The notes under the pieces: model-generated
The model's input: only the letters and a program-made list of their open reading frames with translations
What the model was told of the DNA's origin: nothing
Database searches by the model: none
Part shown: positions 3 through 60,487 of the stretch, piece after piece
Numbering within the stretch: position 1 is the first letter of the stretch
Layout of the letters: every line of letters starts with the position of its first letter
From: a virus
Virus record (IMG/VR): IMGVR_UViG_3300045988_149468
Span: 75,803 to 139,802 of that record
Strand: one strand, 5' to 3'
DNA length: 64,000 nt
Program-made: the position numbers and the translations under genes

Positions 3-1427
3 ACAGACAAATTAAATACAACTGCTAAGGATTTAAAAGGGGCAGTTAATGAACTTAATACACAATATAAAGATATCGCATCTAGGACTATTACAACCGA
101 AGAGAGAAATAAATTAAATAGTCTAAATAATTATGATGACACAAGTATAAAAAATGATATACAAACAATTAATACACAATTAGGAGATATTGCGAACAAA
201 TTTACAACCGAACAAACAGATAATAATTTTATATTAAAATATGGTGATAAAATAATAGCAACTATTCCTATAAACGGAACATTAGTTAATTATGGTAGTA
301 TAGTTATATCTTGTAATGAAATTTTAGAAATAAACGAAGGTGAAACATTAGACATTGAAGTTTATTTAAGTTCAAAACCTACAAATAATCAATCTATAGT
401 TATTACAACAAGCAATTCTAATATAACTACATCAGTAAGTGAATTAACTTTTACCCCTAATAACTATGCAACAAGTCAAATTATTACTTTAACTGCTATA
501 CATGATGTTAGTTCATTTGATGATAAAAATTGTTTAGTTACATTTGCAAGTGAAAATGTAGAAAATATAACTATTACTGTTACTATAAAAAATACTGATG
601 TTCAACAGTCACATTATATTACAGATGGATTAAGTTTATACTATGATTTTACAGAAACTCCAACAAACCCAACAACTGTTTATGATAAAGTTAATAATGT
701 ATCTATATATAATAAAAATTATACAGCTGATAATTATACAAGCAATGGTGTGTATTTGATAAACGGTGGCGGTTCAGAAGCATATAAATTTGGCTCTAGT
801 AGTGTTAGTGTTTTCGAATATCAAACAATGCCTGAATTTAACAATTTCTTGAATAAAATCAAAGAAGGTAATGGATTGACTATTGAGTATTTCGGACAAT
901 ATATTCCTGTATCTATCATGTATGCATATAATAGTGGGGTTAATGCATCGGGTACAGGAGCAATTGGTGGTGGATATTTAACAAAATACGAGTCTCTAGG
1001 TGGTGTTACCTTTAAATATTTAAATACATCTAATGAAACAACTAGCGTTAGTTTAGCTCAAAGTGATAAAGCAACAAAAGATGGTCAATCAATACTTGCT
1101 TATTCCGCTGATAATAAAGCTGATACTTATATACATCTAGTTATTACTGCTGATGAAACAGGAAAATTAACATGGTATTTAAATGGAAATGTTATGAGTA
1201 ATACTGCTACTGCAACTGATTTTGCATCGTGGGATTATGATACTATGTTTAAAGCTAATTATTGTATGCTTGTTAGATGTGGAGTTGAAGATACAAATAG
1301 ACTTATATACCCCGCAACAAGTATAAAAATATATAATAGAGCTTTAATACAAGATGAAATAAAAACTAATTTAGAGTATGAAATAAGCAAAACAAATTTT
1401 GTTAATTCAGCAAGTGTTACTCCCTAG
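3..1427 (+). CDS. tail fibre / receptor-binding protein, C-terminal part (5' end outside window), LamG/concanavalin-like C-terminal domain
   Basis: Frame 3 is open from base 3 to TAG 1425-1427. The track ORF 750..1427 is only its GTG-initiated tail. KGAVNELN fibre-like motif near the start; LTWYLNGN...IYNRALIQDEI resembles LamG_3 domains. Confidence 0.55.
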   Translation, partial: TDKLNTTAKDLKGAVNELNTQYKDIASRTITTEERNKLNSLNNYDDTSIKNDIQTINTQLGDIANKFTTEQTDNNFILKYGDKIIATIPINGTLVNYGSIVISCNEILEINEGETLDIEVYLSSKPTNNQSIVITTSNSNITTSVSELTFTPNNYATSQIITLTAIHDVSSFDDKNCLVTFASENVENITITVTIKNTDVQQSHYITDGLSLYYDFTETPTNPTTVYDKVNNVSIYNKNYTADNYTSNGVYLINGGGSEAYKFGSSSVSVFEYQTMPEFNNFLNKIKEGNGLTIEYFGQYIPVSIMYAYNSGVNASGTGAIGGGYLTKYESLGGVTFKYLNTSNETTSVSLAQSDKATKDGQSILAYSADNKADTYIHLVITADETGKLTWYLNGNVMSNTATATDFASWDYDTMFKANYCMLVRCGVEDTNRLIYPATSIKIYNRALIQDEIKTNLEYEISKTNFVNSASVTP

Positions 1428-19501: not shown

Positions 19502-21373
19502 TTATTTTGTAAATTTTTTATATTTTGTTAAAATCATTTCTTTATCTTCTAATTCTATCCATTTGTCACCTTCTTTTTTCTTTTTATTCTTAATTTGATA
19601 TCCTTTAATACTAATCACATCACCTATTTCTAATGGATCTTGCTTAAAATTCTTTTTATATATTTTTACATCTTTTAATTTACCATTTCCTATACCATAT
19701 AAAGTAATTCTAGGTGTGTATTTAGTATTTATATCTGTAATAATACATTTATTTCCCATAGATTTATCTATTATATTACAATTACCACAAAATTCAAAAT
19801 AGGTTTTAATTAATTCTATAGTGTCTGTTCCATTATCCTTAATATGTTTTTCTATTGCAATTAACATTGGTAATATATCAATAAAAATATATTTTTTTTC
19901 TGTTTCTCTTTCAGCATATTTACTAAATATTTTATTTAAGCTAGGATATTTATCTTTTGATAATTGTTTTTTACCATAAAATGTTTGATAAAATTCATAT
20001 ACTTTTAATAGTTTTTGAACACCACCAAATTCACTAAAGAAATTCAATGATATTAATATTGTCATTTGTTTAGAGTTTATTTTTTTACCTATGTCAACTA
20101 ATAATTCTACAAAAGAATTATAATTATTATCTTTTAAAGAATATAATAATTCACCTGCATTTTTATTTAAGTTTTTAATTGATTTTATACCTTTATATAT
20201 AGAATTGCTCTCTCTATCTAAAAAATATTCAGATCTGGAAAATCTAAATTTAGGATTTTTAATTTCTATATTGAAATATTCCATTTCTTTGGTCAATCTA
20301 GCAGTTCTTTCAGTATCATCTTCATATTCATTTAATGCTACGGTATAATATTCTAAAGGATAATGAGATTTTAAATAAGCACCATATAAACTATCATAAG
20401 CGTAAGATAAAGAGTGACTAGCATTAAAACTGTAATGAGAGGCATTTTCAATTACTTGCCATGTTTCATTAAAACCTTCCTCTTTTCCTACCACATTGAT
20501 CCAACCTTTTTTTAATTTAATTTTTAATTCTTCTAATTCTTTTTCTTTAAACTTCTTTTTGCTAATTTTTTTAATTATTGTATATGTTTCACTTTCATCT
20601 ATACCTAACCATATCAAATATTTCATTATAGATTCTTGATACATAAGGTAATGATAACTATCTTCTAATAAATTATCTAGTTTTTTTACTCCTGTTGTAT
20701 ATTCTTTTCTTTCTATAAAATTATTTAATAAAGATGCAAATCCTGGTCTAATAGAGGCTACAAAAGCCGACATTTCTGCCAAACTTTTAGGTTTATATTT
20801 CATTATTAAATCAGTAGCAAATTTACTATCAGCTTGATTTATAGAACAGGTTAATCCTTTCTCATATATATTCCATGTTTTATCATCTAATAATTTTGAT
20901 AATTCAGTAGTCGTAGGTATTAAAATATTTGCTAATTTACAAACATCTTTTATAATTTTCCATATACTAACTTGTAAAATGTCATTTTTAAGATATTTAT
21001 ATTTATCACAATTAATTCCATCTATATTGCAAACAAATACATCTCCCGCTTTTAATAAACCTATCTCCTCACTTATAGGTTGAGATAATAATAAAGTAGA
21101 ACATGGACTTTGTGATACAGATTCTATTGTTCCGACAAAGTGCTTACTCTCTTCAATTATTTTGTTCCAATTCTCATCATCTATATAATTATCTAAATCT
21201 TTTGCTACTTCATTATAATCATTAATATTTAATCCTATTGCTTTACAATACAATCTAAATGCACTAGCTTTTTGCAAAGGTTTAAAACTTAACATCCAAT
21301 GACAATTATCTTCACCTAATAATTTCTTTGAAGCATCAATAAATGGTTGTTGTTCAGCAACATTTGTATCCAC
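19502..21373 (-). CDS. dnaE: DNA polymerase III alpha subunit, exon 2 (palm/fingers to C-terminus)
   Basis: Begins VDTNV, continuing the PD|VD catalytic motif of exon 1. FNASHSLSYAYDSLYGAYLKSHYPLEYY matches the DnaE FNKSHSAAYA...AYLKAHYP motif. Confidence 0.75.
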   Translation of the reverse strand: MDTNVAEQQPFIDASKKLLGEDNCHWMLSFKPLQKASAFRLYCKAIGLNINDYNEVAKDLDNYIDDENWNKIIEESKHFVGTIESVSQSPCSTLLLSQPISEEIGLLKAGDVFVCNIDGINCDKYKYLKNDILQVSIWKIIKDVCKLANILIPTTTELSKLLDDKTWNIYEKGLTCSINQADSKFATDLIMKYKPKSLAEMSAFVASIRPGFASLLNNFIERKEYTTGVKKLDNLLEDSYHYLMYQESIMKYLIWLGIDESETYTIIKKISKKKFKEKELEELKIKLKKGWINVVGKEEGFNETWQVIENASHYSFNASHSLSYAYDSLYGAYLKSHYPLEYYTVALNEYEDDTERTARLTKEMEYFNIEIKNPKFRFSRSEYFLDRESNSIYKGIKSIKNLNKNAGELLYSLKDNNYNSFVELLVDIGKKINSKQMTILISLNFFSEFGGVQKLLKVYEFYQTFYGKKQLSKDKYPSLNKIFSKYAERETEKKYIFIDILPMLIAIEKHIKDNGTDTIELIKTYFEFCGNCNIIDKSMGNKCIITDINTKYTPRITLYGIGNGKLKDVKIYKKNFKQDPLEIGDVISIKGYQIKNKKKKEGDKWIELEDKEMILTKYKKFTK

Positions 21374-22715
21374 CCTTTATACCGTAGCTTTCGCTATACT
21401 TTAACACTTATTTAAAAGTCGGAGTAGACTATACCATCAACGTTGATATTATCTCGGTTGCCTCTTGGTAGTCGTTGCGACCTTCCCATATCTTTCATTA
21501 GACTTAGGGCTGTGTCTCAAGATTGCCCAATCCTTAATCTTGTTACTATACCTAATTAGTTAAATTAGCCATACTTCGGTTTCCCTAGTACTTAGTAATT
21601 AAGGCTCTAAGGGGTTTCCTTGATATTCGAGGTTTTCATTATATATCACTATATAATGCGACTATTTTATTATTATATATGTTTTATTATTTATAAAAAT
21701 TTCAGAGGATTCTTTTAATATTCTTTTTATTTTCTTTAATCCTAATCCTGTTTCTTTTTGTAACTCAGGATACCCATAATAAAATTTATTGTCTTCTTTA
21801 CAAAGAAATATATTATAATTACATTTACAATTTTTATAGAATACTATCAATTCTTCCCATAATTTCTCTTTATTAACAACATAATCATCGTCTATTTCTT
21901 TAAAATGATATGCTTTTATCGTTACTCTACTTCTATTAAGTATCCCTACGTTATTGTTATATTTTTCTTTTGCAAATTTTATACATTTAAAAATTTCACC
22001 AGTCTCTAAACATACTACTCTTTTTGCCATGCCATGTTCTTCATTTTTTAAACCATTGTTTTTCATGAATTCGCTAAATTTTTTCTTCTTTTCTTCACTC
22101 CAATAGTTTCCATAATTAGGGTTATTCTCACCATCATATTTGCCTAATTTTATTTCTCTAGCATGATTTTTCATTTCTTTAGTCCAGTAATGAGCATAAT
22201 TAGGATTATTTTCTCCTTTAACTATATCTGATATTTTATTTCTAAATTCCTCACTTTTGTAAACACTATCTTCATTTGTTCTTATTTCAATCATTTTTCT
22301 TCTGAAATCTTCATCTTCCCATCTTTTCTTCGATAATTCTCCTTGTTTCTTCTTCCACTCTTCATCTGGTTTCCATCCAGATACTCCTTCTCCCCCATCG
22401 GTTTGATTTGTTAATCTATATTCGGGATAATGTTCTCTATAATATTTAATTAATGCTCTTTCATATTTAAAAGCCTCATCTTCTTTTAAATTATCTATTT
22501 TAATTCTAAAGTTACAATTATGGGTATTATACATATCTTTAAAGAATTTATTTCTTCCCGATACAGTTTCAGCCCTTCTTTCTTTCCCTTTCCCTACATA
22601 AAAAACTTCATCTGTATCTACTATAAACCATTCATAAATATAATAATTATTCATTTTTTTCACCTCCTTTCTTAATTATCTTTATTTAAATAAAACATAT
22701 ATAATAATTATGTTA
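21374..22715 (-). mobile_element. group I intron carrying a GIY-YIG homing endonuclease ORF, inserted in dnaE
   Basis: A 1342-nt interruption falls exactly between the codons for PD and VD. The 288 nt after the ORF (21374-21661) are conspicuously GC-richer and contain R-like GAGACACAGCC and S-like GGTATAGTCT core elements. The last intron base is G and the last exon-1 base is U. Confidence 0.65.
21662..22654 (-). CDS. GIY-YIG homing endonuclease (intron-encoded) with NUMOD3-like repeats
   Basis: YIYEWFIVDTDEVFYVGKGKERR is a GIY-YIG motif. GENNPNY[AG].YW[ST] repeats three times. ATG 22654 follows SD aaaggagg. Confidence 0.75.
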   Translation of the reverse strand: MNNYYIYEWFIVDTDEVFYVGKGKERRAETVSGRNKFFKDMYNTHNCNFRIKIDNLKEDEAFKYERALIKYYREHYPEYRLTNQTDGGEGVSGWKPDEEWKKKQGELSKKRWEDEDFRRKMIEIRTNEDSVYKSEEFRNKISDIVKGENNPNYAHYWTKEMKNHAREIKLGKYDGENNPNYGNYWSEEKKKKFSEFMKNNGLKNEEHGMAKRVVCLETGEIFKCIKFAKEKYNNNVGILNRSRVTIKAYHFKEIDDDYVVNKEKLWEELIVFYKNCKCNYNIFLCKEDNKFYYGYPELQKETGLGLKKIKRILKESSEIFINNKTYIIIK

Positions 22716-23918
22716 ATCGGGTAATGATTTACTCTGTAATATTCTTGTTGTACTCATAAATCTTGAAGGATATAACGTAATTGGTGAATCAAGTCTATCC
22801 AATGAAGTGAATCCTAATAATTTATTAATATAGAAACTAGGGGCTGAACCTCTCGAACTTTTTGTTATTATTCCATGATATTCAGTTGTAGCTAATTTTA
22901 TCATCTTATAATTTATTAAAAAATATTCAGCCATATTAGTATCTTTTATGACTTGCCATTCATCTTTTATAGCTTGTATATATTCATCTTTTCTGTTTAG
23001 ATTTATATTATTTAGTTCCTTTTTAAATTCTTTTTCTATTATTTCACCTAATTCTTTATTAGGATTATTTGATATATGGGGCATTTTTATATCATCATCA
23101 AACTGTATTCCTTCATATTTATCAAATATAAGAGTATTGTCTAACGCTTGTTTAATTTGTTTATCTGTCAATATACCTTGTTCTCTATATCTTTGAACAA
23201 CTGTTTTATAATTTGGATAATCTAATATAAAATTATTTTCATCTTCATAATTTATACCTTTAGCATGAAGAAATAAATCTCTATATTTGCTATCTTCAGG
23301 TTTTATATAATGGGAATCATTAGCATGAATAATTTGTATATTGTATTTATCTGCATATTCTAATAATCTTTTATTATATATCTTTTGTATATCTACATTA
23401 TGATTTTGAACTTCTAAATAAAAATTATCACCAAAATATTCTTTCATTTTAATTATCCATTCTTCAGAACCTTCAATATTTCTAAGTCTTGAAGCAACAC
23501 AAGCAGTAGTAATTATAACGTCATTAGGATTTAAATTAAACAATAATTCGTTATCTATTCTTGGTTTATAATAATATCCAGTTATATTTGCTTCGGATAA
23601 TATTTTATTAAGTTGTTTTCTTCCATTATTATTTAAAGCTATTATAACTAAATGGTAATTAGATTTATCTTTTTTGTATCTATCTTCTACATAATAAACT
23701 TCTGCACCGATCATAAGTTTTAATCCATTTTCTTTACACAATGTATAAGCTTCATATACATTGCCTTGATAACCATGTTCTGTTGTAAAATAAATCCCTT
23801 TATCACCATCCAATTCTTTAATCCTATTAATATAATCTATTGGCTTAACTATTACATCTAAACTTCTTAAATTAGAATAATGTGTATGTTTATGATAATT
23901 ATTATAACGATATTCCAA
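22716..23918 (-). CDS. dnaE: DNA polymerase III alpha subunit, exon 1 (PHP domain to catalytic PD)
   Basis: YHKHTHYSNLRSLD...FTTEHG is a PHP domain. It ends ...RFMSTTRILQSKSLPD, aligning to the DnaE motif FERFLNPERVSMPD(IDID). TTG start 23918; an in-frame TAA at 22713-22715 belongs to the intron. Confidence 0.75.
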
Positions 23919-23953
23919 TTCTTATTCACCACCTTATTAATTATTATATTTAT

Positions 23954-28461: not shown

Positions 28462-28495
28462 TAATTATCAACTCCTTATTAATTTCTATATTTAT

Positions 28496-28524: not shown

Positions 28525-28654
28525 TGTATTTTAAATATTCTATTAATAAATTTTCGTATAATCTTTCTAATGCTAAATTATCAGCTATTGTATTTTCTAT
28601 ATATATAATTCTTCACTTGCCTTTCTCATTTCCTTCATTACCGTTATTATGTGT

Positions 28655-29437
28655 TTAATCCGTTATTTCAACTTCGTAATTATATAGAGCTTGATATAAT
28701 TTATCAGGTATTCTACCTTTATAATAATCAGCTACTTGTTTGATGTATTTTTCTTTATAATGCTTGTAAACTTTAAACGCCTCTACTTCTGTGTTATAAT
28801 AACCCAAATATTCGTTTTTAGATTTTCCAGTTTCTGGATTGATTAAATTACAATTTGCTTGATATACTTTATCTCTTTTATGATAACTTGTACCTATGAC
28901 TGATTCTCCTCTCTTCTTATCGCTTTTAATAAATAATTTATTAATATCCTGAGGTACATAAATACAAGTTTCAGGGCTATAAATTTTGTTGCCTTTAACT
29001 AAAATATCCTTGTCAAGGCACATTTGTTGTCCTTCAACTGTATAGAAGTTTTCCTCATCCCATTCTCCAAAGTTCTGAAAGTTTAACCATTTTTCACTAG
29101 TGTTACAATCTTTATAAGTAAGATGTTTTTTATGCTCTTTCTCGCAATAGCATCTTCTTAACATATCATACCAAGTTTGATAAACTCTAGTAGATTTTCT
29201 ATTTTTACTAACGCTATAATCTCCTTCCCCTAAATAAGCAATTCCATAATATCTCTTTTCATAAGGACATTTTACATTACCTTTTTTAAAATTACTATAG
29301 TCTGCATTTTTAAAAGTCCAATTATATTCTGGAAAATAAATATCTACATCTGAGTATTTTCTATATTTAGTTATTATCATTTCACTTCCAAATGTATCAA
29401 TTCTTGTTTCACCTATTCTATCTACTTTACTACCCAT
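28655..29437 (-). CDS. AP2-domain homing-endonuclease-like protein, paralog 1 of 3
   Basis: Shares end-to-end similarity with 32062..32844 and 40164..40943. LDKDILVKGNKIYSPETCIYVP is a degenerate HNH-like segment. C-terminal GTSYHKRDKVYQA...LGYYNTEVEAFKVY is an AP2-like DNA-binding domain. Confidence 0.5.
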   Translation of the reverse strand: MGSKVDRIGETRIDTFGSEMIITKYRKYSDVDIYFPEYNWTFKNADYSNFKKGNVKCPYEKRYYGIAYLGEGDYSVSKNRKSTRVYQTWYDMLRRCYCEKEHKKHLTYKDCNTSEKWLNFQNFGEWDEENFYTVEGQQMCLDKDILVKGNKIYSPETCIYVPQDINKLFIKSDKKRGESVIGTSYHKRDKVYQANCNLINPETGKSKNEYLGYYNTEVEAFKVYKHYKEKYIKQVADYYKGRIPDKLYQALYNYEVEITD

Positions 29438-32033: not shown

Positions 32034-32061
32034 ATTTTCATCTCCTTATTAATTTATATAT

Positions 32062-32844
32062 TTAGTCAGTTATTTCAACTTGATAATTGTACATCGCATT
32101 ATATAATTTACTTGGAATTTTATCTTTGTAATAATCTGCAGCTTCTTTTATATTTTGTTCTTTAAATTTTTTATAAGATTCAAATGCTTCTTCTGACGTT
32201 TCATAATATCCTAAACGCTTTCTTTCAATTTTATTTTCTTCATAATCATAAATACTACATTGTGATATAAATTTTTTAGCATATTTATCATAACTAACGC
32301 CTATAGGATATTCTCCTCTATGATTTTGTCTTTTGGCAAATAATAAATTTATTTTTTCTGGAACAAATACAGAAGTTTCTGGAGAATATATCTTATTATC
32401 TTTAACTAAAATATCTTTATCTAAACACATTTTTTCACCTTCAATTTCGTAGTAATTATCATCAAACCATAATCCAAAGTTTTGAAAATTTAACAAATCC
32501 TTATAAACCTCACAGCCTTTATATGTTGATTCTTTTTCATGAAATTTAAAGTCATAACATCTTTTTAACATACTACGCCAAACTTCATAACATTTTGTAT
32601 GCTCTCCATTTTCTTTACTTTTATATTTACCTTCTCCTAAACATCCATGTTCATACACTCTAGGTTCATAAGGACATTTTATTTTTCCTTTTTTAAACTG
32701 ATTATATCCTGTATTTTTAAAAGTCCAATTATACTCTGGAAAATATACATCTATATCTGAATATTTTCTATATCTCACTATAATCATTTTACTTCCAAAA
32801 TTATTAATGTTCTCTTCACCTACTCTATTAACTTTACTCCTCAT
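32062..32844 (-). CDS. AP2-domain homing-endonuclease-like protein, paralog 2 of 3
   Basis: See 28655..29437. Ends with the same NYQVEITD tail. Confidence 0.5.
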   Translation of the reverse strand: MRSKVNRVGEENINNFGSKMIIVRYRKYSDIDVYFPEYNWTFKNTGYNQFKKGKIKCPYEPRVYEHGCLGEGKYKSKENGEHTKCYEVWRSMLKRCYDFKFHEKESTYKGCEVYKDLLNFQNFGLWFDDNYYEIEGEKMCLDKDILVKDNKIYSPETSVFVPEKINLLFAKRQNHRGEYPIGVSYDKYAKKFISQCSIYDYEENKIERKRLGYYETSEEAFESYKKFKEQNIKEAADYYKDKIPSKLYNAMYNYQVEITD

Positions 32845-33423: not shown

Positions 33424-33455
33424 AATATCAACTCCTTATTAATTATTATACTTAT

Positions 33456-40135: not shown

Positions 40136-40163
40136 AATTATCACTCCTTATTAATTAATATAT

Positions 40164-40943
40164 TTAATCTGTTATTTCTACTTCGTAATTAGACAATGCT
40201 TGATATAATCTTTGTGGTATTTTATCTTTGTAGTAGTCAGCTACTAGCTTGATATTGTTTTCTTTGTATTCTTTATAAACTTCAAATGCTTGTTCAGGTG
40301 TATTATAATCTCCTAAATATGTTTGCTCTGATTTACCAGTCTCAGGATTAAGTAAACTACAACCTACCCTAAATTTTTTAGTGCGTTTTTCATAACATAC
40401 TCCAACAGGATATTTACCTCTTTTACTATCTCTTTTAGTGAATAATAGATTTATCTTTTCAGGTACGTAAATGCAAGTCTCTGCTGAATATATTTTATTG
40501 TTTTTTACTAATATGTCTTTATCTAATGTCGTTCGTTGTCCTTCTATTTCATAGTAGTTTTCACTATTCCAATATCCGAAGTTTTGATAATTTAGCCATT
40601 CATCAGATGCTTTACATTGATTATATGTATGATGTTTCTCGTGAAATTTAGAATCATAACATCTTCTAAGCATATCTTTCCATGTTATATAACATTTCGT
40701 ATATTTTCCATTTTCTTTACTTTTATATTTACCTTCTCCTAAACATCCATGTTCATACACTCTAGGCTCATATGGACATTTTATTTCGCCATTTTTAAAA
40801 GCACTATAGTATACACTTTCAACAACATAATTATATTCTTCAAAATATACATCAACATCATGACAATTTCTGTATTTAACTATTACCATTTCACTACCAA
40901 AGTTATTATATCCTACTTCACCAGTTCTATCTAATTTGCTCAT
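40164..40943 (-). CDS. AP2-domain homing-endonuclease-like protein, paralog 3 of 3
   Basis: See 28655..29437. Ends NYEVEITD. Confidence 0.5.
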   Translation of the reverse strand: MSKLDRTGEVGYNNFGSEMVIVKYRNCHDVDVYFEEYNYVVESVYYSAFKNGEIKCPYEPRVYEHGCLGEGKYKSKENGKYTKCYITWKDMLRRCYDSKFHEKHHTYNQCKASDEWLNYQNFGYWNSENYYEIEGQRTTLDKDILVKNNKIYSAETCIYVPEKINLLFTKRDSKRGKYPVGVCYEKRTKKFRVGCSLLNPETGKSEQTYLGDYNTPEQAFEVYKEYKENNIKLVADYYKDKIPQRLYQALSNYEVEITD

Positions 40944-44729: not shown

Positions 44730-46043
44730 TTAAAATTTATCACTCTCTAATACCTCTAGTAATTGTGGAATATCTACTCCAAAACCTTCTGTTAATTTTG
44801 TACTTCCTACGAAATCATTCCAACTAAATGCCGTAGTAAATGTATATGTTTTGTTACTTGTATTTGCTCTTGTATATTTAGGTTTTCTAGTTGCACTTGT
44901 ACCGAATAATACCTTTGCTCTAAGCACCTCGAATGAGTAACCTCTACCAGCTTTCTCGATGTTCTTAATCAAGTTATTTAAACTTTCTGTATAAGCATTT
45001 GTAATTCTACAAGTAAAATAGTTAAATATCTCATACTGCCAGTTATCAACTGTTTTGATTACATCTTGATAGTATTTCATATCCTTTGGAACTGCTTTTT
45101 TCCAGTCCTCATAAGCTTTTAAAGCATCTTCTCGATTATCATGTTTATAGATATCTCTGAATTGTTCCTTCAATTCATAAGCTAACTTTAATTGTGGAAA
45201 ATCTAGAAACATTAGTTGCATATCCCAAATCTGTCTAGCATTTAAATCCTCTTTGTTCCTCAGTAGCAAGAATCTATCTTTTAACAGTTTAGACCTTTGT
45301 TTCTTGTCTAATGAGCCTTTAAACGACTTTCTCTCACCTTCTAATGCATTGTTGACTAATTGTATTACATGGAATCTATCAACGATTACCTGAGCATTTG
45401 GCAACTCCTCATATACTGCCTCTTTGTAGTATCTCCACATATCTATGGTTACTACTTCTATGTTCTCCTTGTTAGGCAATTTGATTAAAAAATCCTTTAC
45501 ATCGGATTTCTTACGGCTTGGTTGAATATCTAATACCTTACGTCCAATTATATCGGTGTAAACGGCTCTCATTGACTTATTAAGATGCACCTCATCTATT
45601 CCTAATATAACTGGAGTAAGGAAGGTCATATCATTTTCTAACTTTTCTATGTAACTGTTAAACACTCGCTTGACTGTGGTAGGAGAGATACTATATTCCT
45701 CTGCTATATTAGCAAACGGCTTTTTAAGAGATTCTTTTTCTATCTGTTCTCTTAAACGAATAGTGATTTTATCTCTATCGTCTATGCTTTCATAATGTTG
45801 GCTAAATGTTGTATCACAGTATCTACATTTATATCTATGTGTATGTATTTCAATCCCTACACGTTTCCCAAAGCTGTTTAAATCCCTTACAAATCGTTTT
45901 GATTTGCCATGCTTATAATATTCAACTCCACCACACTCTGGGCAAGCTACAGGCTCTTTAACTGGTTTTACTATTACCGTCATATCGTGGTCATCTTGTA
46001 TTGTGTCTAAAACTTCAAATTCTGGTAAATTTAGTATATTCAT
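44730..46043 (-). CDS. ISL3 family transposase
   Basis: N-terminal zinc finger CPECGG...CRYCDTTF. DDE region ILGIDEVH / VVTIDMWRYY / VDRFHVIQ. C-terminal AYTESLNNLIKNIEKAGRGYSFEVLRAKVLF. Confidence 0.85.
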   Translation of the reverse strand: MNILNLPEFEVLDTIQDDHDMTVIVKPVKEPVACPECGGVEYYKHGKSKRFVRDLNSFGKRVGIEIHTHRYKCRYCDTTFSQHYESIDDRDKITIRLREQIEKESLKKPFANIAEEYSISPTTVKRVFNSYIEKLENDMTFLTPVILGIDEVHLNKSMRAVYTDIIGRKVLDIQPSRKKSDVKDFLIKLPNKENIEVVTIDMWRYYKEAVYEELPNAQVIVDRFHVIQLVNNALEGERKSFKGSLDKKQRSKLLKDRFLLLRNKEDLNARQIWDMQLMFLDFPQLKLAYELKEQFRDIYKHDNREDALKAYEDWKKAVPKDMKYYQDVIKTVDNWQYEIFNYFTCRITNAYTESLNNLIKNIEKAGRGYSFEVLRAKVLFGTSATRKPKYTRANTSNKTYTFTTAFSWNDFVGSTKLTEGFGVDIPQLLEVLESDKF

Positions 46044-46059
46044 TTTGTCTATTCTCTTT

Positions 46060-46554
46060 CTAGTAATTTGTATTTTTGTATGAGTCTATTAAATTGCATA
46101 TATTTTTTATAAAAATTTCAGTATATTTATCTATAAAATCATCTAATCCACATAAGAAGTCAGCTTGTCCATCTAATGTTCCCCAAATTATACTGCACTC
46201 ATCTAATGCAATAGATAAATCACAATTAAATGAATTGCATTTAAGAAGGTTCGTCTTTTCTGACATATCTTGTATAAGTTCTTTTAAATCCCAACCTTCT
46301 CTGTTTTGTAAGAATTCTTTCATGTCTTTTAACTTATCTACATACTTTGTTTTTACTTCATCTAAATCAACAAAATACTCCATTGGAACATTTAAAACTA
46401 CTGATATTTCTATTAACATCTCCAAAGGTGGTATTATTTCGCCCGATTCGTATTTTTGTATAGTTCTTACATTTTTATCAATTAATTCAGATAATTGTTT
46501 TTGAGTTATTTTTTTATCCTTTCTTAATGATTTGATTTTTTCCCCTATAGTCAT
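46060..46554 (-). CDS. XRE-family helix-turn-helix regulator (inside the IS)
   Basis: IGEKIKSLRKDKKITQKQLSELIDKNVRTIQKYESGEIIPPLEMLIEIS is a Cro/C1-type HTH. Confidence 0.75.
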   Translation of the reverse strand: MTIGEKIKSLRKDKKITQKQLSELIDKNVRTIQKYESGEIIPPLEMLIEISVVLNVPMEYFVDLDEVKTKYVDKLKDMKEFLQNREGWDLKELIQDMSEKTNLLKCNSFNCDLSIALDECSIIWGTLDGQADFLCGLDDFIDKYTEIFIKNICNLIDSYKNTNY

Positions 46555-47725: not shown

Positions 47726-47798
47726 TTTATTCCACCTCATAATAAAAATTCCATTTTAACTGTTTTTAACCCTCCTTATTAATTTCTATGTTAATTAT

Positions 47799-47827
47799 AT
47801 TATAATTTAAAATTTCTAATATGTCAA
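47799..47827 (-). promoter_or_regulatory. sigma-A-type promoter, cassette copy
   Basis: TTGACA, 17 nt, TATAAT, then ataattaacatagaaattaataaggaggg. Confidence 0.65.
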
Positions 47828-47959
47828 CTGATTTTCTAACATTTTTTCATTGAATATCAATATTTTATATGCTAATGAAATAGCAGTAGAGGGATCGATC
47901 CCTCTATCCACATATACTTTTGCTAATTCTACTATATTACTTACTTTATCTAATGTCAT
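47816..47959 (-). CDS. hypothetical protein (47 aa, below track cutoff)
   Basis: SD aggag 9 nt before ATG 47959. Contains the 20-bp palindrome at 47887-47906. Confidence 0.35.
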   Translation of the reverse strand: MTLDKVSNIVELAKVYVDRGIDPSTAISLAYKILIFNEKMLENQLTY

Positions 47960-48019
47960 ATTAATTATCTCCTATTCTTTTAGTGTTTAATTATGTATAT
48001 AATTACTTAACAATTAGTC

Positions 48020-48217
48020 CTATTCACATTCATTTTCTAATTTTTCCCACAAATCCCAAATTTCTTTATGAAACTTACAATTTGCATAACATTGTATTCT
48101 TGGGTTATTTTGATATTTTTCAATATAACAACCTGAACGACATATTTGTCCTATGCCTTCATAATAAATATCCTTCAGTAATTGTTGCTCTTTCTTGCTA
48201 AATTTAAAAGTTTTCAT
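48020..48217 (-). CDS. small Cys-rich protein
   Basis: Co-oriented ORF with SD aggaagg. Confidence 0.4.
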   Translation of the reverse strand: MKTFKFSKKEQQLLKDIYYEGIGQICRSGCYIEKYQNNPRIQCYANCKFHKEIWDLWEKLENECE

Positions 48218-48299
48218 AATTATACCTTCCTATATCTCAACTTATCTTTTTCTATATGATTTTGATTTGTTATAATATACCGTTGCATAAAACTTATAA

Positions 48300-48445
48300 A
48301 AAGTTATAAACTCGTAATTTTTATTTTATTTCCTTCTTCATTGAATTCTATTTTGCCGAAGCTACTCTAGTTTGGTGTAACTCTCCAAAGGCTTAAATTC
48401 GGGTACAACGCTCCCTACATCAAATTAGTATTTCTCTCCATTCAC
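48300..48445 (-). ncRNA. candidate omega RNA (reRNA) / right-end region of the TnpB element
   Basis: A non-coding stretch immediately 3' of tnpB that is clearly GC-richer than its surroundings (gggagcgttgtacccg, tagcttcggc, two GGAGAG boxes). Position matches where TnpB guide RNAs are encoded. Boundaries are not determined. Confidence 0.35.
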
Positions 48446-49567
48446 CTATACTAATTCGTAATTACTTAAATTAATGCTTGCATTATAATCTCTATTTATT
48501 TCTAAACCACAATGTTTGCATACATAAGTTCTGTCTTTTAATTTCAAGTCTATTTTAATATTTCCACAATTAGAACAAGTTTTGCTTGAAGGATAATATC
48601 TATCTACCTGTATAAATTTAATACCATTCCATTCGCATTTATATTTCATTTGTCTTATAAATTCATATAAACATTGTTCAGCAATAGCTTTTGATAAATG
48701 TTTATTTTTCATCATGCCAACTATATTTAAATCTTCCATAACAACTCTATAAGGTTTTTCATTTACTATTCTTGCAGTTGATTGATGAATATGATTATTT
48801 CTAATATTAGACAAACGTCTATAAATCATTTTAGCTTTATGTTCTAATTTTATAATGTTTTGAGTTTTAACAAACTTATTTCTTTGTTTATTATACTCAT
48901 ACTTTCTTGAAATTTGTCTTTGAGTTCTTTTAAGTTGTTTCTTTAATTTCTTTACTCTTTTAGTTTTATTGATGTTTTTTATTGTTATTCCATTTGAACA
49001 TACAGCAAGTTCTTTAACTCCTAAATCTATGCCGATGCTTAATTTTGGATTTAAGGTAGTTTGGTTTTCTTCTACTTCAACTCCAAAAGATAAATACCAA
49101 TATCTTCCGTCATAACTACAATAAGGATTACTATATTTGCAATTTGGTATCTTATAATTTGTTTTAAATTTTACTTTGCCTATTTTCTCGATATTACAAA
49201 CATTATCCTTAAAGTAAAGAGCATCGTATCTTACATAAAAAGATTGTTTTGATTTTCTTTTTGATTTAAATTTAGGATATTTACTATTCTTTTTAAAAAA
49301 GGATTTAAATGCTTTATCTAAATTTCTCATACTTTCTACCATAGCTGTATTTGAAACTTCATTCAACCATTTATAATCTTCTTGTTTCTTAAGTTGTGTA
49401 AATTCTTTCCTTATATTACTCATTGAATATTTTTCACCTGATTCATAATGTTCATTGCATTTACTCAATGCCCAATTATAAGCGAATCTACTACAACCGA
49501 TTGTTTTAAACATCAATTCTTCTTGCTGTTCTGTAGGAATAAGTCTAATCTTTAATGATTTTAGCAA
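48446..49567 (-). CDS. tnpB: TnpB (IS200/IS605-family OrfB, RNA-guided nuclease), zinc-finger type
   Basis: RuvC motifs GIDLGV, VVMEDLN and RDYNASINL. Zinc finger CSNCG...CKHCG. N-terminal IRLIPTEQQEELM (OrfB_IS605). TTG start after SD aaaggaggtg. Confidence 0.85.
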   Translation of the reverse strand: MLKSLKIRLIPTEQQEELMFKTIGCSRFAYNWALSKCNEHYESGEKYSMSNIRKEFTQLKKQEDYKWLNEVSNTAMVESMRNLDKAFKSFFKKNSKYPKFKSKRKSKQSFYVRYDALYFKDNVCNIEKIGKVKFKTNYKIPNCKYSNPYCSYDGRYWYLSFGVEVEENQTTLNPKLSIGIDLGVKELAVCSNGITIKNINKTKRVKKLKKQLKRTQRQISRKYEYNKQRNKFVKTQNIIKLEHKAKMIYRRLSNIRNNHIHQSTARIVNEKPYRVVMEDLNIVGMMKNKHLSKAIAEQCLYEFIRQMKYKCEWNGIKFIQVDRYYPSSKTCSNCGNIKIDLKLKDRTYVCKHCGLEINRDYNASINLSNYELV

Positions 49568-49607
49568 TTCTTGTCACCTCCTTTATGTTATTAATTATTA
49601 TATTTAT

Positions 49608-49636
49608 AATATATCATAAAATTATTGAAATGTCAA
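49608..49636 (-). promoter_or_regulatory. sigma-A-type promoter, cassette copy, driving tnpB
   Basis: TTGACA, 17 nt, TATATT, then ataaatataataattaataacataaaggagg. Confidence 0.6.
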
Positions 49637-49706
49637 TAAATATTTATATTTTTTATAAATATTTATTTAACTATGTATCACCCCCTTCCTATATGTATTA
49701 CTTATC

Positions 49707-50015
49707 TTATTTTCTAAAATTTTTTGGAACATTTCTATAATGTTGTGGTTTTTCTTCGCCATCAATTATTCTCTGTAATCGTTCCACATATTTCTTATCT
49801 TTAGCTAATCTTAATAAACTAACTAAGAAATATTTGTTTGTTTTTTTTGGAATTTTATTTTTCAATACACAATCTATTGCATATTGTGTTTGTTCATACT
49901 TTTGCAAATGAGTATGTCCTTCTTGAAAAGGTTTTTTCATGTTATACACTATGTAATTTTTATGCTCTTTGCTGTAAAATACTTTGAAGTTCTTCTTTGT
50001 GTAAACTAAATCCAT
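49707..50015 (-). CDS. hypothetical basic protein
   Basis: Co-oriented ORF. Confidence 0.4.
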   Translation of the reverse strand: MDLVYTKKNFKVFYSKEHKNYIVYNMKKPFQEGHTHLQKYEQTQYAIDCVLKNKIPKKTNKYFLVSLLRLAKDKKYVERLQRIIDGEEKPQHYRNVPKNFRK

Positions 50016-50022
50016 TTAATCA

Positions 50023-50208
50023 TCACCTATTATAAAAATTTTTAACTGCTTCAATTGTTGCTAATTCTTTTATCAAGTGTTCATAAACTTGTATTGCTTT
50101 CTTGTCATCTGTATTTTTAGAACAATAATTATAACCATTATTGAATCTTTTTAATAAATGCTGATAATAACCATTTAAAGCTTTTATAAATTCTTCTCTT
50201 TCCCTCAA
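50023..50208 (-). CDS. hypothetical protein
   Basis: TTG 50208 follows SD gggaggtg. The track extension reads through the leader motif. Confidence 0.35.
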   Translation of the reverse strand: MREREEFIKALNGYYQHLLKRFNNGYNYCSKNTDDKKAIQVYEHLIKELATIEAVKNFYNR

Positions 50209-50251
50209 TTTATCACCTCCCTTCCTGTTATTAATTAATATATTCATGTTA

Positions 50252-51043: not shown

Positions 51044-51056
51044 TTTATATTCCTCC

Positions 51057-59088: not shown

Positions 59089-59161
59089 CTTATTTTCCCC
59101 CTTATTAATTTCTATGTTTATAATATTTTTACTAAAAATTTTTATTAATTATTATATTTAT

Positions 59162-59278: not shown

Positions 59279-60487
59279 TTATAAGTTTACTTTGAATGGG
59301 TGTAACCCTACGCCCTCTATTCCATCAGCAAACACTTTAGGAAATACTTTTTTAATTATTTGATAAGAACCATTTACATCAGCATTAATTTTTGTTCCAT
59401 TATTACTTATGAATAAGCCTCTATATTTTCTTCTACTTTTATTATAATTTTCTTTTATTGGTAACTCACTATCTAAAAATGAAGTACCACTCGTATAACT
59501 TTCTTCAGTAATAATAACTTTTATTCCAAATTCTTCAGCTTTATATTGTACTTTTTGTATAAAATTATAATAAGGTATACTAATAAAGTTTTGATTTACT
59601 TTTTTATTCATTTTACTGTTTTGTTTCCAATTCTTGTTATTGCCTATTATAATAGTATTAATTTTATTATTTTTACAATAATCAACTAAAAATCTACTAG
59701 CTTTATGTACAAAATCATCTACTTTGTTATTTCTTTTAAATGTTAATTTTCTCATTTTATTAGTACAATCTAGTTTATTAACTCTTTTTGCTATTGATTT
59801 ATAATGAGATATTTGTTTATTATAATATTGATTTATTGATTTTAGACCTTTACCATTTATTACTAAAGGAATTAATCCACAATTATTAGTTATGGTTGCA
59901 AAGTTATCTAAACCTAAATCAATTCCAACATATCTCCCATTATCAACCAATGGTTCAACATCTTCAATTTTATAAACTATTTCAATAACTAAATACTTAT
60001 CTTTAGAAATTATTCTGACTTGTTGCAGTCCATTTCTTATTTTAGTTTTAATTAATAATCCCTTGAATTTTTTAGGAAATTTAATATATCCATTTTTGAT
60101 TTTACAGTTTTGATTAGTTAATATCAATATGTTCCTGCCATTTTTGGGTCTATACTTAGGTAGTTTAGGTCTACCTAAGTATTTACTTGGATTATTGTTA
60201 TAATCTTTTATACTAGCAAAGAATGATTTCCAATTTTTATCTAATAATTTTAAACATTGTTGAGCAGAACTACCTAATGGCATATTTTTATAATCATAAT
60301 TATTATCTTCTTTCTTCAATATTTTATCTAACTCATTATATCTGATCCATTTACCATTATTTATAAATTCTTGTCGTATTATATAATTAGCATAATTGTA
60401 TAGATTTTTACTTTTAAAACAATATTCATCTAACATTTTGTAATATTTATTATTTGATTTTATAATATGTTTTTCTACTCTATTCAT
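59279..60487 (-). CDS. tnpB: TnpB-like protein (IS1341/IS605 OrfB family) lacking the CxxC zinc finger
   Basis: GIDLGLDNF (RuvC-I), ITEESYTSGTS (RuvC-II), RGLFISNNGTKINADVNGSYQIIKK (RuvC-III). No Cys pairs lie between motifs II and III. Confidence 0.75.
   Translation of the reverse strand: MNRVEKHIIKSNNKYYKMLDEYCFKSKNLYNYANYIIRQEFINNGKWIRYNELDKILKKEDNNYDYKNMPLGSSAQQCLKLLDKNWKSFFASIKDYNNNPSKYLGRPKLPKYRPKNGRNILILTNQNCKIKNGYIKFPKKFKGLLIKTKIRNGLQQVRIISKDKYLVIEIVYKIEDVEPLVDNGRYVGIDLGLDNFATITNNCGLIPLVINGKGLKSINQYYNKQISHYKSIAKRVNKLDCTNKMRKLTFKRNNKVDDFVHKASRFLVDYCKNNKINTIIIGNNKNWKQNSKMNKKVNQNFISIPYYNFIQKVQYKAEEFGIKVIITEESYTSGTSFLDSELPIKENYNKSRRKYRGLFISNNGTKINADVNGSYQIIKKVFPKVFADGIEGVGLHPFKVNL

Follow-up and report, generated by a model that had tools for sequence, protein, structure and literature searches.

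The 64,000-nucleotide stretch of viral DNA analysed here (the window) carries a tnpB gene that has lost the left end of its transposon, stands behind a phage-type promoter and has a predicted guide aimed at an allele of sister phages; for these reasons the module looks like an RNA-guided homing endonuclease. We consider it fairly probable that the locus is an immobilised TnpB-reRNA pair, expressed by the phage, which works as a free-standing nuclease for RNA-guided homing or exclusion. The sequences compared below show the anatomy and family of the locus, its lack of a left end, a promoter of phage type, the existence of target alleles and how abundant they are, and the mosaic distribution of the module.

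An intact TnpB of the IS607/IStron lineage

48446..49567, minus strand: tnpB, an ORF of 373 aa with a predicted TTG start, encoding an RNA-guided nuclease of the IS607/RAGATH-18 clade (TnpB1)

The product of tnpB matches the Pfam domains HTH_OrfB_IS605 (64.9 bits), OrfB_IS605, which is the RuvC domain (59.2 bits), and Cas12f1-like_TNB (87.1 bits); all three exceed their curated gathering cut-offs (21, 30.5 and 26.3 bits, respectively), giving the domain architecture of a TnpB. The nearest solved structure is that of ISFba1 TnpB (8iaz), which aligns over the full length with E=6e-74. In this alignment D181, E278 and D360 match the catalytic RuvC positions of ISFba1, and the C4 zinc finger formed by two CxxC pairs (C331/C334 and C350/C353) is intact, which bears out the description given in the initial annotation of a 373-aa TnpB with both motifs preserved.

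TnpB1 shares 77-80% amino acid identity with the TnpBs of IStrons, and the corresponding dN/dS of 0.11-0.15 was obtained with saturated dS and mostly covers time before immobilisation. CbISt4 of Clostridium phage c-st is among its relatives. No protein more than 80% identical to TnpB1 was found outside the phage cluster. The element belongs to the IS607/IStron lineage and not to IS605; the IS605 reading, with hairpins and a TTGAT-like TAM, was rejected, and the initial annotation, in looking for IS605-type subterminal hairpins, a feature of IS605, had framed the element within the wrong family.

Guide RNA scaffold, right end and predicted guide

48280..48445, minus strand: scaffold of the reRNA (omega-RNA), with a RAGATH-18 match and laid out as the ISFba1 reRNA (PMC11061315)
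48445..48392, minus strand: 5' flank of the scaffold
48391..48330, minus strand: RAGATH-18 core
48329..48280, minus strand: 3' flank and right end
48280..48310, minus strand: right end (RE) of IS607 type, TTTATAACTTTTTATAAGTTTTATGCAACGG, 31 nt, ending ...GCAACGG
48260..48279, minus strand: predicted guide, 20 nt, TATATTATAACAAATCAAAA, placed by the RE boundary

The Rfam model RAGATH-18 (RF03064) matches the core with 68.2 bits (gathering score, 44.9), and compensatory changes were seen in 11 of the 25 consensus pairs. Support for the reRNA structure comes from the covariance model and this covariation; the single-sequence MFE fold of the region was no better than shuffles (z=+0.5) and is uninformative. 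The GC content of 48330..48445 is 0.39 and that of the entire scaffold 0.33, compared with 0.247 for the window (top 3% of windows), and no ORF of at least 40 aa was found in 48218..48445. An omega-RNA-like tail, markedly GC-enriched and free of ORFs, had been placed at 48300-48445; the Rfam match upholds the RNA and the absence of ORFs stands, "markedly" is a little strong, and the boundary at 48300 was too short, the RE extending the scaffold to 48280.

The sequence of the RE is unchanged among relatives, and their flanks part directly past the terminal GG; an invariant ...ACGG is followed by twelve distinct right-flank sequences (about 9 distinct sites). Both the scaffold end and the 20-nt guide (48279..48260), whose definition had been put forward as a check of the annotation, are thereby predicted. 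As would be expected of a carrier protected from its own nuclease, the guide's self site is preceded by AACGG and not by a TAM, the neighbouring gene (allele A, below) and the rest of the window are without a target, and no TAM-flanked match to the guide was found elsewhere in the window.

A phage promoter and leader in place of the left end

49637..49683, minus strand: spacer, GGGTGATACATAGTTAAATAAATATTTAT..., common to sister phages upstream of TnpB1 or of an unrelated TnpB
49608..49636, minus strand: predicted promoter of sigma-A/sigma-70 type, TTGACA-17-TATATT
49588..49607, minus strand: stereotyped AT-rich phage leader, 20 nt, ATAAATATAATAATTAATAA, with 34 matches in the window
49565..49584, minus strand: native TnpB translation-initiation region, AAAGGAGGTGACAAGAA, plus TTG (49567..49565), located by alignment to relatives

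The predicted tnpB promoter scores 11/12, and a TG two bases 5' of its -10 makes this an extended -10. When up to 3 mismatches were allowed, the leader gave its 34 matches in the window against 2.2 expected (0 of 100 shuffles), and the copy at tnpB is identical over 20/20 positions to those of two further phage cassettes (23934..23953 and 59142..59161). A complete -35/-10 accompanies about 15 of the leader copies, the remaining ones consisting of leader and Shine-Dalgarno sequence (SD) only; the claim that about 30 phage genes share the cassette therefore holds for the leader, whereas the complete promoter reaches about half this figure. At other phage genes the leader leads directly into GGAG, whereas at tnpB it is followed by CAT and then by TnpB's own SD. 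Homology to full-length IS607/IStron relatives, from which the phage leader is absent, begins only at this SD, with the TTG opposite the relatives' ATG; the junction sets a complete consensus promoter-leader exactly before the native tnpB SD. The identity of the leader with two other cassettes suggests, as had been proposed, that the gene is wired to the phage's own expression signals. The leader was also considered as the element's own promoter, by comparison with the intron-less relative L053; similarity beyond the shared SD was at null level, and the 20/20 identity with two phage cassettes likewise counters that reading.

In seven independent full-length relatives the left end, GG followed by TAACTAACAGTTAC, lies 150-740 nt upstream of tnpB, and its junctions read AGAGG (twice), TGAGG (four times) and AGGGG (once); from these seven junctions, together with related enzymes, we infer a TAM of WGRGG. 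This left-end motif was found neither in the window nor in any sampled sister-phage copy, which, along with the start of homology at the SD, agrees with the earlier observation that no left end is visible. The spacer was tried as a degenerate left end and rejected: its local alignment beat empirical nulls for two of five left ends, a likeness due only to a low-complexity 19-nt insert peculiar to the window. The relatives also share a conserved block of ~450 nt, for which no counterpart was found in the 64-kb window or in any of the sampled sister phages; Rfam recognised no intron in this block at E<=0.1, and its identity as a group I (IA2) intron follows the literature for c-st (PMC4227781).

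No TnpA serine-recombinase motif (Y.R.SS..Q type) was found in six frames of the window, in keeping with the absence of TnpA reported initially; the ORFs neighbouring tnpB carry other domains, and the sole transposase in the window is an unrelated ISL3 DDE enzyme (44730..46043). In all sampled contigs the tnpB module occupies one locus. Among the characters of IS607/IStron elements, the terminal-GG right end is present, and the left end, the intron, TnpA and insertion at multiple sites are missing. Hairpins at both ends and multiple identical copies in the host genome had been named as the mark of an ordinary insertion sequence; of the two ends the RE alone was found, and the sampled contigs have no copy at another locus. 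The comparison supports the conclusion, already drawn in the initial annotation, that the element is not an autonomous IS: it occupies a single fixed locus, without left end, intron or TnpA, and none of 185,579 species genomes contains its RE+guide junction.

The predicted target lies in an alternative allele of sister phages

49707..50015, minus strand: allele A, a 102-aa gene, the target-free variant accompanying the TnpB module
49684..49708, minus strand: left copy of an imperfect direct repeat, AAGATAAGT-N5-ATATAGGAAGG, the intergenic tail after allele A
48242..48279, minus strand: remnant of allele B, 38 nt from its 3' end (..V YYNKSKSYRKR), stop codon included
48225..48248, minus strand: right copy of the direct repeat, AAGATAAGT-N4-ATATAGGAAGG, the homologous intergenic tail after allele B
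48020..48217, minus strand: 65-aa gene, right-hand homology common with target-carrying phages

Allele A is ~40% identical in protein to allele B and contains no match to the guide. The 38-nt remnant is identical to the end of an intact 108-aa gene at L034, L035 and L036-L043, as well as at L016, and the predicted guide falls inside it. A search for the guide with an adjacent TAM, as originally advised, returned AGAGG followed by a perfect 20/20 match in the intact allele B of ten sister-phage loci (L034, L035 and L036-L043); the 5'-truncated allele B of L016 also has AGAGG and the 20/20 match, and one TAM variant of the target was seen (AAAGG, at L022). The target of the predicted guide is situated, as for a homing endonuclease, at the allelic locus of nuclease-free relatives. 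Such a match of guide to empty site is automatic for any IS605/IS607 insertion, being expected by construction, and is therefore no proof of nuclease use.

An exact scan for the RE or TAM plus guide, the RE+guide junction included, gave 0 hits in the 185,579 species genomes and one hit each in IMG/VR and the JGI metagenomes, both of them empty alleles; matches to GG+guide in IMG/VR and JGI metagenomes were to allele B of sister phages only. The earlier suggestion of homing, or of retention in co-infections, fits a TAM-bearing target at the allelic position of sister phages. No host or plasmid target, the other use suggested, was found, the host search covering the same species genomes (0 hits).

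Between the two haplotypes, homology ends precisely at 48281/48280 (right side) and 50023 (left side), and the arms are 96-98% identical. In the empty allele L019 the left-repeat sequence is joined straight to the 65-aa gene. The 24-nt direct repeat that flanks the module was rejected as a target-site duplication, its copies being the homologous intergenic tails of two alternative alleles.

Protein homologues of alleles A and B occur in Romboutsia, which is only a hint at the host; AT-rich Peptostreptococcaceae or Clostridia are candidates. The ISL3 transposase, used as a host probe, had no match in the 185,579 genomes, and the 102-aa neighbour, used as a query for related loci, had none in IMG/VR.

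Distribution among gut phages and a second TnpB lineage

The phage is a widespread one of the human gut, ~140 kb in length. Across phages the module is 99-100% identical, with a right flank that is ~80% identical or lacks the 65-aa gene. Two homology arms and a patchy spread over diverged backgrounds, the pattern of a homing element, are both present; four right-flank haplotypes were distinguished, each found occupied and empty. Summed over the listed cluster members, ~240 contigs carry allele B and ~134 carry TnpB1. Of the ~134 listed contigs, 129 (about 96%) have an intact ORF with its catalytic residues and zinc finger, as well as an intact reRNA scaffold and RE, and a frameshifted tnpB (204 + 184 aa) was present in three samples. 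Copies of tnpB within the phage family differ by 1-8 codons, nonsynonymous changes being at least as frequent as synonymous ones; with so few differences and no synonymous excess, purifying selection since immobilisation cannot be shown. When positions 46500-51500 were compared by megablast with 50,697 phage records, the tnpB part alone was matched, and no isolate relative was present there.

A second RAGATH-18 TnpB, of 388 aa, was found at L019/L022 in a layout like that of TnpB1: a variant allele is followed by the phage promoter-leader, the TnpB, an RE and then the remnant of a 47-aa gene. The predicted target of the 388-aa TnpB is GAGGG+ATC(A/G)ATCCCTCTACTGCTAT; the intact 47-aa gene of the window contains GAGGG and a 19/20 match to the second-lineage guide, with G at position 4, which may be an escape. 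Variants of the 47-aa gene at target positions 1-4 were also noted.

Proposed mechanism and alternative explanations

On the homing or exclusion model, the locus contains a CbISt4-like element of the IS607 family, from the Clostridium IStron lineage, that has become immobilised. Of this element tnpB, the RAGATH-18 scaffold of the reRNA and the RE remain, while its left end, its group I intron and any TnpA have disappeared; it has gained a stereotyped sigma-A promoter-leader cassette, fused to the coding region just 5' of its own Shine-Dalgarno. The predicted ancestor is an allele B interrupted at CCTAAAGAGG by a full element with GG followed by TAACTAACAGTTAC. We infer expression, RNP formation, cleavage and biased inheritance as follows. 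Host RNA polymerase would transcribe tnpB and its 3' UTR from the phage promoter, and TnpB would bind the 3' UTR of its own transcript, the reRNA consisting of the scaffold to ...ACGG (48280) and, as guide, the next 20 nt, which would be what remains of the 3' end of allele B. During co-infection with a sister phage bearing an intact allele B, the RNP would recognise AGAGG and the 20-nt match and cut; repair of the break from the TnpB-bearing genome would convert allele B to allele A plus the TnpB module (intronless homing with co-conversion), or the cut may instead disable the rival genome (marker exclusion). The carrier would be immune because its own copy of the target follows AACGG, not WGRGG, and allele A is without a match. 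Against homing, the allele with the perfect target continues to outnumber its alternative, and the region is hyperplastic, so that recombination of the ordinary kind between stereotyped intergenic sequences could have produced the mosaicism.

An inert relic would account for several of these features, and we regard it as unlikely though deserving of serious weight. An IStron/IS607 element would have inserted in allele B and later lost its left part by deletion or recombination, leaving tnpB behind a phage promoter by chance, as neutral cargo that is shuffled and slowly decaying. The guide fits the empty site by construction, the copies show few substitutions and no excess of synonymous changes, one lineage (three samples) is frameshifted, the region is extremely mosaic, and the target allele remains abundant and unmutated. 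Such a history sits poorly with an ORF, catalytic residues, zinc finger, scaffold and RE intact in 129 of ~134 listed contigs, with a complete consensus promoter-leader placed exactly before the native SD, with the arrival of a second TnpB lineage at the same architecture, and with a near-identical module in four diverged flank haplotypes.

That the locus is still a transposon seems very improbable to us. It would be an IS607-type IS that is non-autonomous and depends on a TnpA supplied in trans, by the host or from elsewhere in the phage, and the 47 nt of spacer that follow GGAAGG would contain its left end in cryptic or degenerate form; non-autonomous IStrons are common (PMC4227781), and the spacer does begin directly past GG. 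Two of the five relatives compared have a left end that the spacer weakly resembles (0 of 48 empirical nulls), but the similarity is not robust: for the other three, 10-15% of nulls reach it, and the shorter spacer of L017 does no better than the average null. There is no GTAAC...GTTAC palindrome, an identical spacer precedes an unrelated TnpB in L016, and to the right lies allele B instead of the sequence that continues the left flank in the empty allele L019; the single locus in all sampled genomes, the lack of a more than 80% identical protein outside the phage cluster and the lack of a serine-recombinase motif in the window also argue against mobility. We find it improbable, too, that the nuclease has been co-opted to another end, on the model of TldR-type regulators or phage CRISPR systems, its processing of its own transcript tuning the 65-aa gene or its RNP binding or cutting a host, plasmid or unrelated-phage sequence. 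Regulatory TnpB derivatives encoded by phages are known (TldR; PMC10705468), and no terminator was found between the reRNA and the 65-aa gene, for which reason the two are probably co-transcribed. The catalytic triad of TnpB1 is nevertheless intact, unlike that of TldR; GG+guide is unmatched in 185,579 species genomes and, in IMG/VR and JGI, matches only sister-phage allele B; and the window offers no further match with an adjacent TAM.

Significance

TnpB is the ancestor of Cas12. To our knowledge, its only demonstrated natural role is to hold its own transposon in place, and the service of a nuclease to another replicon has been documented for CRISPR and for nuclease-dead TldRs, but we know of no active nuclease of this kind in a virus. 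The locus offers a concrete, testable natural case, in which the transposon machinery is gone, the signals for expression are those of a virus, the targeted sequence is a rival allele in circulation within one phage population, and the design recurs in a second lineage. Confirmation of cleavage and of biased inheritance would mean that RNA-guided homing shapes the mosaicism of gut phages, and would provide compact nuclease-reRNA pairs with a new TAM (WGRGG); otherwise the locus would still be a well-resolved case of IStron decay in phage genomes.

It is possible, and we propose it tentatively, that this gut phage family has turned several independent transposon nucleases, of at least two RAGATH-18 lineages, into free-standing, phage-promoter-driven RNA-guided homing or exclusion endonucleases; TnpBs of 366 aa and 402/403 aa are perhaps also part of such conversion. 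Each module would be coupled to a small accessory gene in its resistant allele, and its guide would be the leftover end of the sensitive allele. Were this true, TnpB-reRNA modules would compete for one hypervariable locus in co-infections. Seg/Mob intronless homing would then have its first natural counterpart guided by RNA, which might mark a step on the way from a selfish TnpB to weapons of phage against phage.

Comparison with known systems

The free-standing homing endonucleases of T-even phages (SegF, SegG, SegB and MobE) carry out intronless homing and localized marker exclusion. As in the phage module, the nuclease gene lies between conserved phage genes and is patchily spread, and a divergent allele is found beside it. 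Seg/Mob enzymes cut the homologous locus of related nuclease-free phages, spare the allele next to their own gene and bring about co-conversion of flanking markers, all of which by analogy we propose for the module. The module differs in that a 20-nt RNA guide and TAM would replace recognition by protein, in that the nuclease is transposon-derived, and in being known from sequence alone. TldRs, which are prophage-encoded, offer an analogy in another direction, as phage-borne, immobilised TnpB derivatives with an adjacent guide RNA that form part of a phage programme. They act as repressors of host promoters, having lost their RuvC residues and C-terminus; TnpB1 shows neither loss of RuvC residues nor C-terminal truncation, its active site and zinc finger being intact, and its guide matches phage DNA, not host DNA.

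The RAGATH-18 TnpB clade is characterised biochemically by an AG-rich TAM, a 20-nt guide and RuvC-dependent cleavage (PMC11061315). ISFba1 TnpB (Ren et al. 2024, PDB 8IAZ) shares with the phage TnpB the protein family, the D/E/D residues and the zinc finger; its reRNA likewise lies wholly 3' of the stop codon (5' flank, RAGATH-18 core, 3' flank and 20-nt guide), and its TAM is also an AG-rich 5-mer ending in GG or similar. The ISFba1 TAM was measured as AGGAG or GAGGG (PMC11061315), whereas that of the phage is predicted to be WGRGG (AGAGG at the target), and the 3' flank is 64 nt in ISFba1 and 50 nt in the phage. The phage element, unlike ISFba1, is without a left end, is phage-borne and stands behind a phage promoter.

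Group B IStrons of Clostridium and its phages (CbISt4 of phage c-st/D-1873; CboIStron, Zedaveinyte et al. 2023/24) are nearest to the phage element in both DNA and protein, with ~70% nucleotide identity to c-st CST113 and 77-80% amino acid identity to metagenomic copies. They share the 31-nt right end, GG at both junctions and a scaffold ending ...CGG, and their TnpB-reRNA is documented to home into the empty site (10.1101/2023.11.20.567912). Splicing of IStrons is "always retained" while the IS part decays (Tourasse 2014; PMC4227781); the phage module presents the reverse decay, the intron, left end and ORF A remnant being gone and the nuclease-RNA part being kept and re-promoted, no longer intragenic in a functional gene.

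A 2026 review of OMEGA systems describes "transposon non-restorative homing" into co-infecting phages or plasmids (PMC13565253), in which TnpB needs no TnpA to cleave the empty orthologous site of a different replicon, exactly the mode that we propose here. In the review this is a theoretical category accompanied by a plasmid experiment; the locus described here would place it in a natural phage population, in an element that is no longer transposable.

TnpB1 and the phage promoter-leader cassette

All three Pfam domains of TnpB1 (HTH_OrfB_IS605, OrfB_IS605 and Cas12f1-like_TNB) scored above cut-off, and the best solved structure was 8iaz, the ISFba1 'IS607 TnpB', which matched over the full length (E=6e-74). 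The RuvC and zinc-finger motifs, described as intact in the initial annotation, were complete; TnpB1 keeps catalytic D181, E278 and D360 as well as zinc-finger residues C331/C334/C350/C353. The gene and its upstream region are arranged as follows:

49567..48446 (-), tnpB1, a 373-aa ORF whose TTG start aligns with the ATG of relatives
49636..49588 (-), promoter-leader of tnpB1, TTGACA-17-TATATT with an extended -10, then directly ATAAATATAATAATTAATAA; upstream of the Shine-Dalgarno (SD)
23934..23953, 28476..28495, 33436..33455 and 59142..59161, examples of the 34 leader sites of this stereotyped regulatory cassette

At <=3 mismatches the leader occurred 34 times in the window versus 2.2 expected, and in none of the IStron relatives; the central proposal of the initial annotation, that TnpB lies behind the phage's own promoter-leader cassette, is correct. 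The consensus consists of TTGACA-17-TATAAT, a 20-nt leader, ATAAATATA(A/G)(T/A)AATTAATAA, and GGAG; about 15 leader copies have the complete promoter, and about half of the copies are leader only. Nearly all adjoin GGAG directly; at tnpB1, CAT and then the native TnpB SD follow instead. Different genes, unrelated TnpBs included, stand behind the same cassette in sister phages. The arrangement resembles that of T4-type phages, whose promoter cassettes (PeSLs) are mobile.

Guide RNA scaffold and right end

The 228 nt between tnpB1 and the next gene contain no ORF, in agreement with the tail initially described, and carry the sole Rfam match in 64 kb, RAGATH-18 at 68.2 bits (gathering score, 44.9), which bears out the omega-RNA (reRNA) scaffold proposed there. 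The GC enrichment noted downstream of tnpB was likewise recovered (0.39 across the scaffold's first 116 nt versus 0.247 overall). In this TnpB clade the reRNA is built around RAGATH-18 as its core: it starts ~13 nt past the stop codon, with a 5' flank ahead of the motif and a 3' flank and 20-nt guide after it; the measured target-adjacent motifs (TAMs) are AGGAG or GAGGG (Ren et al. 2024, PMC11061315). A single-sequence fold of the reRNA region was no better than shuffles; alignment with five relatives yielded 25 consensus pairs, and compensatory changes were seen in 11.

When aligned with Clostridium phage c-st CST113 and metagenomic relatives, 31 nt, TTTATAACTTTTTATAAGTTTTATGCAACGG (48310..48280), were invariant, and beyond the equivalent of 48280 the relatives' flanks were wholly different (twelve distinct flank sequences, ~9 distinct sites). 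The block is the right end of an IS607-type element. Because the right end stops at 48280, the guide is predicted to follow directly, giving a layout as in the ISFba1-clade reRNA:

48445..48392 (-), 5' flank of the reRNA scaffold
48391..48330 (-), core, matching RAGATH-18
48329..48280 (-), 3' flank, ending ...CGG as does the scaffold of the C. botulinum IStron
48279..48260 (-), predicted guide, TATATTATAACAAATCAAAA, adjoining the right end

Loss of the left end

Seven independent full-length relatives (1,442-2,048 nt) begin GG|TAACTAACAGTTAC...; in most of them, a conserved block of ~450 nt and an RHH ORF in antisense orientation separate the left end from tnpB. The copy in c-st is equivalent to CbISt4, a published group B IStron (IA2 intron, IS607, 2,053 nt; PMC4227781). 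The five bases preceding the seven left ends were AGAGG, TGAGG (four times), AGGGG and AGAGG, from which we infer a family TAM of WGRGG. The relative L053 (1349..2792; 1,442 nt) has no intron and is inserted after AGAGG within a small ORF; its left end is just 150 nt from tnpB, and the order is left end, internal TTGACA-17-TACAAT promoter, tnpB, reRNA and right end.

The window's homology to full-length relatives begins only at AAAGGAGGTGA, the SD, and neither the left-end motif, the intron block nor the serine-recombinase motif was found anywhere in the window; the element had been said to lack a transposon left end and a TnpA, and both statements hold. The 47-nt spacer weakly resembles the left end, but this similarity failed an empirical null and was discarded.

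In the IStron relatives themselves, the GC-richer block of ~450 nt (L004 ~765..1250; L001 787..~1300) gave no Rfam match at E<=0.1, even though in c-st it has been published as the group I intron of CbISt4. The antisense ORF of L004 (1260..1412, -) encodes a 50-aa RHH_5 protein. A segment of L004 (~1220..1244) shows complementarity to the right end, which suggests that intron and reRNA 3' flank may pair long-range in these relatives.

The guide matches an alternative allele in sister phages

Allele A, the 102-aa gene upstream of TnpB1 (50015..49707), was found in 408 index blocks, and the DNA beyond it is hypervariable. Among sampled sister-phage loci it is followed directly by the 65-aa gene in L019, by a 403-aa TnpB of another type in L016 and L022, by two TnpBs in L020 and by none in L018 and L024; in other phages, as in the window, TnpB1 follows. 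In further phages its position is held by the 108-aa allele B (~40% protein identity), which ends ...CCTAAAGAGG|TATATTATAACAAATCAAAATCATATAGAAAAAGATAA. The 38 nt past AGAGG in allele B are identical to 48279..48242 of the window, past the right end, and the window's guide is therefore a remnant of allele B. AGAGG with a perfect 20/20 guide match was present in 10/10 sampled loci with intact allele B and in the 5'-truncated allele B of L016; L022 has AAAGG in place of AGAGG. A search of 185,579 species genomes for GG plus guide gave 0 matches. Listed cluster members number about 240 contigs for allele B and about 134 for TnpB1.

In a BLAST comparison of the allele-B phage L040 with the window, arms 96-98% identical stopped at 50023 (left) and 48281 (right); where one haplotype has allele B, the other has allele A, spacer, promoter, tnpB and scaffold. 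The 24-nt 'direct repeat' (49708..49684, 48248..48225) proved to be simply the homologous intergenic tail of alleles A and B. The self site in the window reads AACGG where the target has AGAGG, and allele A has no guide match, so that self-protection of the carrier is visible at sequence level; the counterpart in CboIStron is TCGG versus TGGG.

A candidate homing or exclusion nuclease

Reasoning by homology with ISFba1 and CboIStron for all four steps, we propose that host sigma-A RNA polymerase would start at the phage cassette and transcribe tnpB1 with its 3' UTR; that TnpB1 would bind the 3' UTR to yield the reRNA; that the RNP would cut allele B of a co-infecting sister phage after recognising WGRGG plus 20 nt there; and that the break would be repaired from the carrier genome via the flanking arms, converting allele B to allele A plus module. 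Alternatively, the cut could end in loss of the rival genome.

The signs of spread fit what repeated homing predicts. TnpB1 genes of seven distinct phage backgrounds are separated by 1-8 codons; identity across the module stays at 99-100% in phages whose right flank is ~80% identical or lacks the 65-aa gene; and for each of four right-flank haplotypes an occupied form and a form with uninterrupted allele B were found. The same patterns could arise by ordinary recombination, the region being mosaic.

Right-flank haplotypes, occupied form and empty form (L numbers, sister-phage loci)
window; L040
L017; L016
L021/23; L022
L015; L041

We consider it somewhat probable that TnpB1 is a functional homing or exclusion nuclease, and place it no higher because of four caveats. 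The guide match to the empty site is automatic for this transposon class. No purifying selection since immobilisation was measurable among TnpB1 copies from seven distinct phage backgrounds, which differ by 1-8 codons; dN/dS of 0.11-0.15 was obtained solely against IStron relatives, where dS is saturated. A frameshifted TnpB1 (204 + 184 aa, overlapping ORFs) occupies the same locus in L055 (1935..3055), L056 and L057, from three different sequencing runs. The allele B target is still common and unmutated in the population. We consider it unlikely that the module is an inert relic, and still less likely that TnpB1 serves in another co-opted role. A still-mobile IS, with its right end kept and its left end gone, is highly improbable.

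Other TnpBs and selfish genes of the phage family

A second independent example is a 388-aa RAGATH-18 TnpB (L019 and L022), whose module reads:

variant 41-aa allele of the 47-aa gene; phage promoter-leader; tnpB; right end ...TATATAACGG; ATCAATCCCTCTACTGCTAT..., the 3' part of the 47-aa gene

In the window's intact 47-aa gene (47816..47959, -), GAGGG+ATCGATCCCTCTACTGCTAT at 47904..47880 matches the guide of this TnpB at 19/20, with the mismatch at position 4, and 18/18 sampled loci without the 388-aa TnpB differ from its guide within positions 1-4; these could be escape variants, or else the guide could have mutated. The 47880..47904 site is also a palindrome that scored as terminator-like. 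L019 (4690..4750) and L020 (5990..6060) share one phage promoter-leader (TTGATTTTTGTAAGATTTTATGyTATTAT-AAGAATATAATArTTAATAAG) at the same genomic position, which precedes the 388-aa TnpB in the former and an unrelated 366-aa TnpB in the latter.

The window holds a second TnpB of 402 aa (59279..60487, -; 3' end at 59204), merely 24% identical to TnpB1. The lack of the RuvC-II glutamate (..NTIIIGNNKNW..) and of a CxxC zinc finger, with NADVN in RuvC-III, marks it as a TnpB that is 'derived/rearranged' or dead. A phage promoter adjoins its conserved 3' end, ...ACAATTAATAAAATTTATAACCT, and no Rfam match was found downstream of the gene; solo ~25-nt copies of this end occur in L018 and L020, and the element type also occupies the allele A/B hotspot of sister phages, with differing right flanks.

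An exact match to the TnpB1 protein placed the window on a contig of 139,830 bp from a human-gut metagenome. Sister contigs of 137-148 kb, one of them an IMG/VR viral genome, were present in many samples; no isolate relative of this large phage was found among a 50,697-record phage collection. The window (24.7% GC, nearly every gene on the minus strand) encodes a split DNA polymerase III alpha, ribonucleotide reductase, helicase, primase, sigma factors, Bro/ANT and YopX proteins, and several selfish genes. The polymerase (19502..23918, -) is divided into a PHP/N-terminal part (22713..23918) and a finger/HhH part (19502..21373), between which lies a 333-aa NUMOD3-motif endonuclease ORF (21662..22663). 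An ISL3-family DDE transposase (437 aa) and adjoining HTH_3 gene (44730..46554, -) are shared with some sister contigs (L025-L028) and missing from most other variants, and therefore probably represent a recent IS insertion. Three diverged paralogues of 259-263 aa (28649..29160, 32056..32567, 40158..40669; 60-72% nt identity across about 500 nt) are scattered across the replication-gene region.

Comparison with known systems

Each component of the TnpB1 locus is known: the TnpB-reRNA of the RAGATH-18 clade (PMC11061315), IS607 IStrons, Clostridium-phage copies included (PMC4227781), TnpB homing (10.1101/2023.11.20.567912), and, for the protein endonucleases of T-even phages, intronless homing. 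A 2026 OMEGA review (PMC13565253) includes 'transposon non-restorative homing' into co-infecting phages as a purely theoretical category, and full-text searches turned up no described phage case. What appears to be new is the combination of a lost left end and intron with a nuclease and RNA that persist, fused to a viral promoter, linked to a resistant allele and aimed at the sensitive allele of the same phage population; that a second lineage shows this design also appears to be new.
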